Assembly: GCA_023920165.1 (NCBI GenBank)
Contig: CP089279.1
Coordinates: 1,302,001-1,366,000, forward strand
DNA length: 64,000 bases
Direction: 5' to 3'
From: Curvularia clavata
Lineage: Eukaryota
Shown: positions 58,626 to 61,517 of the stretch, piece after piece
Layout of the letters: every line of letters starts with the position of its first letter
How positions within the stretch are numbered: position 1 is the first letter of the stretch
Made by a program: the position numbers and the translations under genes
The notes under the pieces: generated by a model
The model's input: only the letters and a program-made list of their open reading frames with translations
Told to the model about the DNA's origin: nothing
Databases searched by the model: none

Positions 58626-59288
58626 TCAAGCAGGGAGGTGACAAACTGAAAATCCTGGTGTCGTCTGCGACACCGTGAGGTTCATGACTGACCTTGGCTT
58701 CTCCAAATAATCAATCATGAGCTGCGAGCAGTGCCTTGTATGCGTTAATGCCCTCACATGAAGATCAAGGTATTTTTGGTCTTCCTGGTAGCCCCGATGC
58801 AGCCGCCGCCACATGAGCGCGCAATGCACCATGTGCTCTCGAATCTCCGTGAAGTAAGTGTTTGGTGCTACCACGTCTCCCATCTCGTCTTCGGTCAAGA
58901 GGCGCTTGGCTTCGCGTGTCTCCCATGCCTGCCATTTGGCAAGGCGTTTGAAGTCGTTGAGGTTTTTGTGGTCAAGGCATGGATTTGGTACCCAGATATT
59001 GGAAAGAACATCGTAAGTACAGTTTAGCTCTCGGGCAGTGGTAGAGTTTGTGCCGCAGTGTAGTGTTCTCATGCGTGGTGCTTTTGGGGGAAACGGTCGG
59101 ATGAGGAAGCCGAGAAGTGTTGTGATTGCTATCGCAAGCAGGAACGTGATAGCATGTAATGTAATGATCTTCCTTGTACTTGCTCTCTTAAGAGGCAAGG
59201 ACTTTGAGCTGTGCGGCTCTAATAGTAACCTCTCTTCGTGCGATCCATCCATCTGCTTGTCGTCATCGTATGGCTGATTTTGAGACAT
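58626..59288 (-). CDS. UstYa/DUF3328-like HxxHC oxidase, type II membrane protein, 220 aa
   Basis: Intronless ORF with first ATG at 59288, one N-terminal transmembrane helix (IITLHAITFLLAIAITTLLGFLI), CGTNS..ARELNCTYDVLSNIWVPNPC and two HxxHC motifs (EHMVHC, THTRHC). Confidence 0.8.
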   Translation of the reverse strand: MSQNQPYDDDKQMDGSHEERLLLEPHSSKSLPLKRASTRKIITLHAITFLLAIAITTLLGFLIRPFPPKAPRMRTLHCGTNSTTARELNCTYDVLSNIWVPNPCLDHKNLNDFKRLAKWQAWETREAKRLLTEDEMGDVVAPNTYFTEIREHMVHCALMWRRLHRGYQEDQKYLDLHVRALTHTRHCSQLMIDYLEKPRSVMNLTVSQTTPGFSVCHLPA

Positions 59289-60871
59289 GTTTTTGGACAA
59301 ATTCCTATTCAAAAATCAGTCCACCCTCGAAGATCCAATCGCAGATGAGGAATTTTACTGTTAGAATACTGTAGCTCCCAAACAGATTGTCGGATGTCGT
59401 GATGAGATGCCGATTTCGCGAGCGCGCTGTAAAATGGGCGTTCGACACTAGTCTGTACCAGAAGTGACAAACCTAGATAATCACGAGTGCATGTAAGTCT
59501 CAAGATCTTATCAAAAATCGATAAATGGCGCTGCTGGCTTGGGTGCGCAGCCATCTATCCAATTACTACATCACTTACTCAAGCCCAAAGAAAGCAGGAG
59601 GACTACAGTCAGCATGAGTAAGCCTTCCGCTCGTGGACAGATACACCTCTCTACTAAGATCTGTCATAACTAGTATATGACTAGAGGCAAAATAGAGAAG
59701 AGTAGATACCTACTAATATCTGAACAATGAGTTCGAGGTCGGGCTGCTCTTGGTTGTGGTCCCAGCAGTTGTCAGCCTGCTGGTGCCATCCACGAACACA
59801 TGATTGGTGCGGACATGCAACAAGGCCGATCAGGTTCCCGCAAAACCATGGCTCTCAACCAGTAATACCTCTATCCAAAGCAGGAGCAGGAGCTTCTATC
59901 CTGGATCGATTGCTTTACCATAGGATTTCCACCTCATCGGAGCGATCAGAAAAATATATTACTTTCCCAAAAGCGTTGCAGAACTTAATTGTGCGATGCA
60001 ATATCCCCTAGCGCACAGAATGATGGGCGTGAGTACTTGAGAGCACTGACAATCTGATGCGTTGGCTCGAGCATGCCCACAAATCGCTGGGCTTTTAGGA
60101 TCTTCATTGAGCAGTCACACTGAGTGTGAGCTGTCGCTATATAGAGTATGCGCGCATACGGAAGATTCATGTTTGCTCTCAATTTAGTTTCTCCGATGTA
60201 CATCCGTTGCGAAAATGGCAGCATCGGGCAACACATATTCGTTCTTTTTTCCTACGCATGTTCACTTAACACCAATGCAAGACGCCATCTCCCGTAGGCG
60301 CCGTCCGATGTCAGCAATCCCAAGGTTTGCGAGATCAGATGTGACTGCAGAGATTTCTGTTAGCTTATGAGGTACGAGCATGTGGATCTCCGTCAGAAAT
60401 TCTGCATTTTCGTGGAATACACTTGCCTATCGTTACTATGTTCCTTGAAGCTCCGGGAACTTTACTTTCAACGCATGTTTAAACTGAAGTACTGCGTATC
60501 AAGACCGGCATACCTAGTATCACAATTCTCAGCTTTCTGTTAAACGCTGCTGGCTCTTAGTTAACCTTAACTATTCGTAAATGCATCACGAATTCCTTGA
60601 GGTTTCGGAAACCAGGAAAATGCATACTAGGTTTCAGGCACGATCACATATAAAAAAGTCAATTGCAGCCGACTAACACCGTATCAAACGAGTGGACTAG
60701 TTTCCAAGACCCCTTGCATTTACCAATCCAAGCCTGTTCGTCCATCACTACTACCGCCGCCACAGGTCAGCCAAGTCATCGTCATTCGTCCAAGTCATGA
60801 TTCAAAGCACTCCAAAATGCCAAGAGTGGTTGTTTGCAAAATCAGCGATCTGCAAGCTCAATGATTTTGGT

Positions 60872-61517
60872 CTACTCAACGTCGACAGCGTCAATCTTCT
60901 TTTGGCGTTTCTCGACATCGACGGCATCAATCTTCTTTTGGCGCTTCTCGACATCGACGGCATCAATCTTCTTCTGGCGTTTCTCGACGTCAACTGCGTC
61001 AATCTTCTTTTGACGCTTTTCAACATCGACAGCGTCAATCTTCTTCTGGCGTTTCTCGACGTCAACTGCGTCAATCTTCTTTTGACGCTTCTCGACATCG
61101 ACAGCGTCAATCTTCTTTTGGCGCTTTTCAACGTCAACGACATCGATCTTCTTCTGACGCTTTTCAACATCGACGGCATCAATCTTCTTTTGGCGCTTTT
61201 CAACGTCAACGGCATCGATCTTCTTCTGACGCTTCTCGACATCGACGGCATCAATCTTCTTCTGGCGTTTCTCGACGTCAACTGCGTCAATCTTCTTTTG
61301 ACGCTTTTCAACATCGACAGCATCGATCTTCTTCTGCGGAAATCGTTTCGCGAGCCCCACTAATTGCAAGCTTGGTTAGAGATCCTCTGACTCTGCTGTG
61401 ACCTGTGGGGTACTTACTGGGCTCGGTAAGGACGATGCCATTGGAACCTTCGACAGGAAGTGCAGAGATGATAGTGGTCATGCCCATCAGGACAGAAAGG
61501 ATAGTGGTCGACTTCAT
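60872..61517 (-). CDS. Secreted Kex2-processed repeat protein (KEP), putative RiPP precursor, 195 aa; join(61418..61517,60872..61359)
   Basis: Signal peptide MKSTTILSVLMGMTTIISA-LP. A 58-nt intron (61360-61417; GTAAGT..CTAAC..TAG) joins in frame to M-GLAKR-FP-(QKKIDAVDVEKR)x12-QKKIDAVDVE-stop; copy 6 reads QKKIDVVDVE. Confidence 0.92.
60875..61336 (-). repeat. Coding tandem repeat, 36-bp unit, 13 copies (last copy lacks KR)
   Basis: Directly visible unit of the form CARAAGAAGATYGAYGCNGTYGAYGTYGARAARCGY, varying almost only at third codon positions. Confidence 0.98.

Follow-up and report, generated by a model that had tools for sequence, protein, structure and literature searches.

Dikaritin clusters, such as those for ustiloxin, phomopsin, asperipin-2a, epichloecyclin and victorin, share a precursor that starts with a signal peptide and carries repeated cores delimited by the dibasic pair KR, with one or more single-pass membrane proteins bearing two HxxHC motifs encoded nearby. 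The characterised dikaritins cyclise via an aromatic ring, usually into tyrosine-ether macrocycles. Here, we analysed a stretch of 64,000 nucleotides from Curvularia clavata (contig CP089279.1, positions 1,302,001 to 1,366,000; hereafter the window), one end of which shows a comparable layout. It contains a gene for a Kex2-processed repeat protein (KEP) with a signal peptide and KR repeats and, nearby, a DUF3328-type gene that is kept in relatives and that we call HxxHC-1; a gene combining cytochrome b561 with a DOMON-type haem domain (b561/DOMON) lies beside them. We interpret this locus as a dikaritin-like cluster for a ribosomally synthesised peptide with post-translational modification (RiPP) of a Pleosporales fungus, with an unusual non-aromatic core, and put the probability of this interpretation at roughly 0.6. 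The victorin producer, too, is a Pleosporales fungus according to the available text of PMC12048977.

The UstYa/DUF3328 family is defined by two HxxHC motifs on the C-terminal side (PMC12435403, PMC12048977). The copper nature and the electron requirement of its enzymes were demonstrated in 2025: as described in the available part of PMC12435403, DUF3328 proteins are membrane-anchored, luminal, homodimeric binuclear-copper enzymes, in which the motif HxxHC(x)nHxxHC binds copper. They need O2 and an input of electrons, for which the authors postulate an unidentified accessory electron-transfer protein, and members of the family also act on non-aromatic C(sp3)-H bonds (PMC12435403). In the KEP survey of Umemura 2020 (PMC7329392, main text and tables as available), DUF3328 genes were strongly enriched beside KEP genes, with 31.8% of all DUF3328 genes located at most 15 genes from a KEP, and 22% of 7878 KEPs had a DUF3328 neighbour. 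Within the searchable literature, the cluster layout found here is already known and the precursor type probably is as well, and what is new is an enzyme sub-family invisible to Pfam, a core without aromatic residues and a conserved b561/DOMON partner.

A precursor with thirteen copies of one decapeptide

The precursor gene has two exons (Table 1), separated by an intron of 58 nt with a GTAAGT donor, a CTAAC branch site and a TAG acceptor, and the exact 61359/61418 joint is found in a spliced RNA contig of run X1 (depth 156.5; CT..AC ends on the plus strand). The N-terminus of the encoded protein is hydrophobic and signal-peptide-like, and is followed by a short pro-region ending in KR-FP and by 13 decapeptides separated by KR, twelve of them QKKIDAVDVE and one QKKIDVVDVE. 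Tandem Repeats Finder delimits the same array with a period of 36 nt and 12.8 copies. The original prediction, made from the letters of the window, had described a spliced precursor with signal peptide, pro-region and 13 KR-delimited copies of QKKIDAVDVE; gene model and RNA contig agree with it, except for the alanine-to-valine change in one copy. It also holds that a plain list of open reading frames (ORFs) splits the gene in two (61308..61517 and 60872..61369), and that a single-pass membrane protein with two HxxHC motifs is encoded 1.58 kb downstream on the same strand.

Far from being a chance product, the array has 13 units that comprise ten different DNA sequences but only two peptide sequences. 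Since their pairwise codon differences amount to 325 synonymous versus 12 non-synonymous, selection acts on the peptide, and the core decapeptide is under purifying selection. The same core is found unchanged in relatives of the precursor (the proteins P0030, P0031 and P0032 and the metagenome loci L004-L006), which differ in their pro-regions and copy numbers. The X-Pro spacers vary as well, with FP in this precursor and MP, SP or EP in relatives, around an unchanged core. In the metagenome loci, the precursor (L004 4911-5676, L005 3780-4545, L006 6215-6980, all minus strand) has 15 copies in two blocks of 6 and 9 in different frames, and some of these units bear EP or SP spacers. A GTGAGC donor stands directly after the sixth copy, so that a second intron is probably present inside the array.

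It could be asked whether the repeat protein is cleaved at all, or whether it acts whole as a secreted or wall-associated repetitive protein, given that its cleavage is read from the sequence only. Such a role is highly improbable, as a KR site stands at exactly every unit boundary, including those of the units with X-Pro spacers, and the KR pair is kept while its codons vary between units (AAGCGT 5, AAACGC 4 and AAGCGC 3 times). Furthermore, the copy number ranges from 4 to 15 among relatives with a constant unit.

An alpha-type sexual pheromone precursor would have the same architecture, with its signal peptide, its repeats between KR pairs and its X-Pro spacers of the kind that a dipeptidyl aminopeptidase typically trims. 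To our knowledge, the known Pezizomycotina pheromones are Trp-, Cys- and Gly-rich in character, and the core shows none of this. The 13-15 copies and the deep contigs in a root metatranscriptome are a further argument against a pheromone, as are the empty 'yeast alpha-mating factor' and 'fungal pheromone' columns of the catalogued precursors of KEP type 63, eight labelled DUF3563 and one from Corynespora (PMC7329392, tables as available). We consider this identity very unlikely.

The repeat array (60872-61369, minus strand) gives a match to the bacterial Pfam family DUF3563 at 26.2 bits, just under the cut-off of 26.9 bits and with no individually significant stretch, a match that is due to the repeat. 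In Table S2 of Umemura 2020, OAG17160.1 and seven more Alternaria entries are listed as KEP type 63 with the label DUF3563, PSN64614.1 of Corynespora cassiicola is of the same type, and type 63 is also present in A. arborescens, A. gaisen and A. tenuissima (PMC7329392). The window precursor resembles this type in its below-cutoff DUF3563 label and in its adjacency to a b561 ortholog (OAG17160 beside OAG17159, our P0184, and RYN26231 beside RYN26232). By accession order and the shared label, it probably belongs to this already catalogued family, and it would then lose the status of a new precursor that it had first been given. 'DUF3328 in vicinity' is marked in one of the nine type 63 rows, the pheromone columns being empty in all nine, and the main text of the survey does not discuss type 63 or give it a function, product or cluster (PMC7329392). 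As the survey used Pfam at 1e-5 (PMC7329392) and the neighbours described below fall under the Pfam thresholds, such divergent neighbours were missed. The peptide string 'KKIDAVDVE' gave no match in the literature, nor in the supplements of PMC7329392 and PMC6339444, whose tables give accessions rather than sequences, so that this result has little weight.

HxxHC-1 as a remote UstYa/DUF3328 homolog

HxxHC-1 starts 1584 nt downstream of the precursor stop, and its spliced mRNA has an in-frame stop upstream of the ATG. The protein carries the motifs HMVHC (residues 152-156) and HTRHC (183-187), six cysteines, three N-x-S/T sites and a single strongly hydrophobic stretch at residues 41-59 (hydropathy maximum). 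Its close homologs are all from Pleosporales where the source is named (Alternaria atra with 88% identity, A. burnsii, Corynespora cassiicola, Plenodomus lindquistii, Neocucurbitaria and Periconia macrospinosa), and they fall into an ortholog group of about 220 residues and a paralog group of about 245 residues (HxxHC-2), the paralogs being 44-50% identical. Beyond this circle, an exhaustive phmmer search matched 1151 cluster representatives with E <= 1e-3, of which 294 reach 1e-10 and 10 reach 1e-30.

To place this family, 148 of 150 listed representatives were scanned against Pfam, P0008 and P0029 being left out as already-known close homologs. The only recurring family was PF11807 (UstYa/DUF3328), matched by 16 of the 148, that is 12 of 54 scanned at E <= 0.1, all twelve under the curated gathering cut-off of 25 bits, and 4 of 94 scanned at E <= 0.01. 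Altogether, 147 of the 148 remained below the cut-off. The one passing it, P0106, reaches 28.9 bits, aligned to positions 7-176 of the 220 in the profile, and is itself found by HxxHC-1 with a phmmer E-value of 1.7e-15. When a profile of 24 orthologs and paralogs (A1) was aligned with P0106, hhalign returned a probability of 99.5% (E 9.4e-23, residues 76-201), with three upstream cysteines and both HxxHC motifs in register, and the 26 residues between the motifs of HxxHC-1 equal the spacing in P0106. In an alignment of 122 diverse relatives (A2), C78, C90, C104, H152, H155, C156, H183, H186 and C187 are invariant; both motifs are likewise invariant in A1. HxxHC-1 is therefore, by sequence comparison, a genuine though distant UstYa/DUF3328 superfamily member, belonging to a large branch missed by the Pfam model. 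In contrast to the proteins of the dikaritin clusters, the HxxHC proteins of this locus fall under the Pfam threshold for UstYa.

The structural model is consistent with this placement. AlphaFold2 with A2 gave a mean pLDDT of 87.8, against 65.9 in a run with only the 24 close homologs that it replaced, and predicts a confident C-terminal domain and a transmembrane helix spanning 38-63; the HxxHC motifs fall on two further helices, 149-168 and 181-194, and residues 1-40 have a pLDDT below 70. The modelled architecture, with a disordered N-terminus, one transmembrane helix and a helical domain presumably on the luminal side, is that of UstYa/DUF3328 proteins. A similar organization is described for the cyclochlorotine hydroxylase CctR, a DUF3328 enzyme, in the available text of PMC12435403: a short N-terminal stretch that is disordered precedes a single transmembrane helix and a luminal domain built of helices, with HxxHC(x)nHxxHC on two helices and extra conserved cysteines, a likeness by description and not by sequence comparison. 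Unlike the proposed substrate of HxxHC-1, that of CctR is a non-ribosomal cyclic peptide (PMC12435403).

Among solved structures, sequence searches returned spurious transmembrane matches only (best E 0.0059, a glutamate transporter), and Foldseek of the model against the PDB gave none at E <= 0.001, whereas the 117 obtained at E <= 10 all stay under a TM-score of 0.25; it seems that the family has no solved fold. In a protein atlas, the 17 best clusters are unnamed (score 0.96) and the first cluster with a Pfam name is UstYa at 0.85, which we take as a lead only.

A 34%-identical member of the family was observed in another setting, on contig JAABUO010002325.1 (900-7800; locus L008), amid ORFs for a cytochrome P450, a short-chain dehydrogenase and a GFA-domain protein, with a second UstYa-like ORF in the vicinity (21.3 bits to PF11807). 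The locus gives the impression of another secondary-metabolite cluster, one that lacks a KEP, and such company fits a family of tailoring enzymes.

Table 1. Features of the peptide locus in the window.
Feature	Position	Strand	Remarks
Precursor gene (Kex2-processed repeat protein, 195 aa)	61517..60872	minus	splice model, RNA contig, translation, homologs with same core
Precursor exon 1	61517..61418	minus	
Precursor intron	61417..61360	minus	
Precursor exon 2	61359..60872	minus	includes stop
Repeat array, 13 units of 36 nt	60875..61333	minus	each QKKIDAVDVE (one A-to-V) + KR; last unit without KR
HxxHC-1 coding sequence, 220 aa	59288..58626	minus	type-II-like single-pass membrane protein, remote UstYa/DUF3328 homolog
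HxxHC-1 mRNA, 5' untranslated region	59289..59737	minus	introns 59358..59305 and 59578..59473; RNA contigs X1, X3; GT..AG ends checked
CDH-cytochrome (DOMON-type) + cytochrome b561 gene ('CBD9-like')	63955 (or 63895)..62457	minus	four exons, RNA-supported
b561/DOMON exon 1	63955 (or 63895)..63616	minus	
b561/DOMON exon 2	63563..63300	minus	
b561/DOMON exon 3	63247..62925	minus	
b561/DOMON exon 4	62873..62457	minus	
Intergenic start	63956..64000	none	in related contigs a divergent promoter of about 370 bp shared with the second HxxHC paralog (245 aa)

Gene order in other Pleosporales

With the HxxHC family as query, eight metagenome loci were recovered. Three of them (L004, L005 and L006) contain the same precursor, 3.2 kb from an HxxHC paralog, in the order precursor, b561 gene, about 370 bp, divergent HxxHC paralog, and window positions 60685..63874 are collinear with these loci at 72-78% nucleotide identity. 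One contig of 19 kb (L001 and L006) holds the HxxHC-1 ortholog, the precursor, the b561 gene and the paralog together. About 1.1 kb past the paralog, L006 also has an MFS/sugar-transporter-like gene (11670-12332, plus strand; MFS_1 29.2 and MFS_2 26.8 bits, both under the cut-offs).

For named genomes, gene order was deduced from the numbering of protein accessions, since NCBI normally numbers these along the genome. Corynespora cassiicola has HxxHC-1 as PSN64608, HxxHC-2 as PSN64612 and the type 63 precursor as PSN64614; in Plenodomus lindquistii, HxxHC-1 and HxxHC-2 are KAI8936764 and KAI8936766; and in Periconia macrospinosa, HxxHC-1 (PVI01720) and the b561 gene (PVI01717) are on the same 193-kb scaffold. 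One assembly of Alternaria alternata has HxxHC-2 (KAH6862695) next to b561 (KAH6862696), another has b561 (OAG17159) next to the precursor (OAG17160), and a further genome, named A. alternata or A. tenuissima depending on the source, has b561 as RYN26232 and the precursor as RYN26231. The accession order suggests a close spacing of the cluster genes in Alternaria, Corynespora, Plenodomus and Periconia. Gene order in Dothideomycetes is generally poorly conserved at distances of a few genes. The accessions PSN64609-11, PVI01716, PVI01718 and PVI01719 are missing from Umemura's table.

The linkage of the precursor with the HxxHC family, proposed at first for the window, is thus recovered in other fungi, both in the metagenome loci and by accession order, with two UstYa-superfamily genes beside a KEP in several Pleosporales families. 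This linkage speaks for a RiPP cluster.

The b561/DOMON gene as candidate electron donor

All three introns of the b561/DOMON gene (63615..63564, 63299..63248 and 62924..62874) are confirmed by joints in RNA contigs, and the reading frame is open. Single exons give weak Pfam matches just under the cut-offs. Taken together, they tile along orthologs annotated as 'CBD9-like' or 'cytochrome b561 domain-containing', of which the full-length P0181, P0184 and P0185 contain PF03188 (cytochrome b561) and PF16010 (the DOMON-type cytochrome domain of cellobiose dehydrogenase). A signal peptide preceding the haem domain was judged by eye.

Since the window is collinear with L004, L005 and L006 up to 63874, the HxxHC-2 paralog, an ORF at 9767..10585 in L006, is predicted just past position 64000 in this genome as well, near 64270 and about 0.3 kb beyond the window end. 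The original prediction had spoken of a 'minimal' pathway, a description that does not survive the b561/DOMON gene in the window and this predicted second enzyme gene.

A comparable combination is known from the CYBDOM proteins, such as the plant HYP1/CRR ferric reductases, in which the same type of DOMON haem domain, on the non-cytosolic side, is fused to a b561 transmembrane conduit (PMC10784544, PMC10784552, available text). The fungal protein differs from them in being of the 'CBD9-like' form with a cellobiose-dehydrogenase (CDH) cytochrome domain, and in being clustered with UstYa-like genes and a peptide precursor. It also sets the locus apart from the dikaritin clusters, since here a b561/DOMON gene is part of the conserved block; we know of no such gene in any characterised dikaritin cluster. 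A search of the literature accessible to us, that is outside subscription-only papers and bioRxiv supplements, found no paper that brings DUF3328 together with b561 or DOMON.

We tentatively propose, as an idea that is more doubtful than the cluster itself, that the precursor, the b561/DOMON protein and the HxxHC paralog could form a self-contained luminal oxidation machine, in which b561/DOMON would be the missing electron donor of DUF3328 copper enzymes. It would pass cytosolic electrons across the membrane of the endoplasmic reticulum (ER) or Golgi to UstYa-like binuclear copper centres; its presumed topology, with a signal peptide, a haem domain and a transmembrane haem conduit, would fit delivery of electrons to the side of the copper domain. 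C(sp3)-H chemistry at the Lys, Ile, Val or Asp residues of a charged decapeptide that lacks aromatic side chains might then yield a fungal RiPP of a new class. A complex prediction with two luminal domains of HxxHC-1 and the DOMON domain of P0184 scored 0.21 against a mark of 0.34, which, for a cross-species pair predicted with no alignment, speaks neither for nor against binding. A b561/DOMON shuttle that stays beside two UstYa-like genes and shares a divergent promoter with one of them is a concrete candidate for the electron donor.

Transcription of the locus

Spliced minus-strand contigs are present in three of four RNA runs (X1, X3 and X7), which consequently hold RNA of the locus. Run X1 has splice joints for HxxHC-1, the precursor and the b561 gene together, and run X7, a root metatranscriptome, has a joint for the b561 gene only, the precursor and HxxHC-1 being covered by joint-less contigs. 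Thus, all three genes are transcribed and spliced. The fourth run, X19, is DNA-like, being unspliced and covering intergenic parts, and is uninformative on expression; intergenic parts without contig cover in X1, X3 and X7 were not used as evidence. Contigs of the precursor have word depths of 93-370 versus 2-16 for its neighbours in the same runs, although contig depth cannot rank genes and repeats assemble poorly. In the root metatranscriptome, these depths are 93-292, and the presence of precursor contigs there hints at a plant-associated role.

Tailored or linear peptide

In a dikaritin-like cluster, the 195-residue precursor would enter the secretory pathway at the ER, and its 13 decapeptide cores would be oxidatively tailored in the ER/Golgi lumen. 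The tailoring enzymes would be one or two membrane-anchored UstYa-superfamily proteins, namely HxxHC-1 and the paralog predicted just outside the window, which by analogy with CctR could be binuclear-copper oxidases dependent on O2 and electrons. The side chains concerned would be aliphatic or charged ones, for example Lys, Ile, Val and Asp, and they could be hydroxylated, desaturated or cross-linked. Kex2 would cut after each KR, a carboxypeptidase would strip the KR, a dipeptidyl aminopeptidase would trim the X-Pro spacers and the N-terminal Gln may cyclise, so that many copies of one small peptide would be secreted. Here, all enzymatic steps are inferred, as are the topology and whether the peptide is modified at all.

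Several observations weigh against such a cluster. Tyr, Trp, Phe and His are all absent from the charged, hydrophilic core (GRAVY, the grand average of hydropathy, -0.71), so it lacks the aromatic residue on which the tyrosine-ether macrocycles of dikaritins depend; by comparison, 65.6% of DUF3328-linked KEP repeats contain Tyr (PMC7329392, available text). HxxHC-1 itself is not matched by PF11807 in hmmscan against Pfam even at E <= 1 and is therefore not a Pfam-defined DUF3328 member, and none of its 29 close homologs has a precomputed Pfam domain. Hence, of the UstYa/DUF3328-like identity first proposed for this protein, the likeness stands as remote homology, through the 99.5% hhalign alignment to a PF11807 member, and the direct family match does not. 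The family is not KEP-specific either, since no KEP was found within 16 kb of the L008 member, and no b561 gene in the scan of that locus. As to linkage, on the Alternaria alternata-like contig (L001 1-9100, L006) about 12 kb of unrelated genes separate the HxxHC-1 ortholog from the precursor. This block contains an MFS transporter, an NACHT/NPHP3-ankyrin NLR-like gene, a Fic/DOC gene and a metallophosphoesterase, and is missing at that place in the window. Because of this separation, tight linkage holds only for the paralog, and where HxxHC-1 stands with respect to the precursor differs from genome to genome. In Periconia, Umemura's table lists no KEP near PVI01717-01720. Finally, in run X3, HxxHC-1 (depth 16.5) and b561 are present and the precursor is touched by only one contig of 151 nt with 6 mismatches, and so the contigs do not show strict co-expression. 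Of the co-expression expected from the outset, what is found is that one RNA data set (X1) contains spliced RNA of all three genes; the contigs do not extend this to co-regulation.

These points lead to the alternative that the precursor gives an unmodified linear decapeptide, perhaps with an N-terminal pyroglutamate, which is secreted as a signal, effector or antimicrobial, the HxxHC and b561/DOMON genes being a separate nearby redox module with another substrate. Linear KEP peptides are common, and 74% of the 7878 KEPs lack both a DUF3328 neighbour and a pheromone annotation (PMC7329392, available text). The hydrophilic core without aromatic residues would suit such a peptide, and the conservation of all ten residues is expected if a receptor reads it. 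The greater contig depth of the precursor than of its neighbours points the same way, inasmuch as a measure that cannot rank genes can do so, as do the differing placement of HxxHC-1 and the promoter of about 370 bp that the b561 gene and the paralog share between themselves. However, two UstYa-superfamily genes are found within a few genes of the precursor across different Pleosporales families, DUF3328 genes are strongly enriched next to KEPs (PMC7329392), and UstYa-family enzymes handle non-aromatic C(sp3)-H bonds too (PMC12435403). An unmodified peptide is thus a possible but rather unlikely product of this locus.

We retain the dikaritin-like cluster as the preferred interpretation. Its charged, non-aromatic core would require chemistry other than the Tyr-ether macrocycles of known dikaritins. 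Furthermore, the large fungal UstYa-like family to which HxxHC-1 leads (the 1151 representatives at E <= 1e-3) almost entirely escapes the Pfam model that serves for RiPP genome mining. Because this family falls under the Pfam cut-off, catalogues score this precursor type as having no DUF3328 neighbour, and other 'orphan' KEPs may be RiPP precursors too.

Flanking genes

The examined parts of the cluster showed no gene for a tyrosinase, methyltransferase or P450, which is another difference from the dikaritin clusters. Elsewhere in the window, the region 40314-52662 is housekeeping-like, with genes for a Fes1 nucleotide exchange factor, a DEAH-box helicase (an ORF of 1169 residues), a sugar transporter, a PAP2 phosphatase and an RWD-IBR E3 ligase. 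At 56669-57504 (plus strand), two adjacent ORFs match glycoside hydrolase family 43 (GH43; PF04616, 57.4 and 22.6 bits) and probably belong to a single spliced GH43 gene, immediately downstream of HxxHC-1, and only beyond it does the peptide cluster start.

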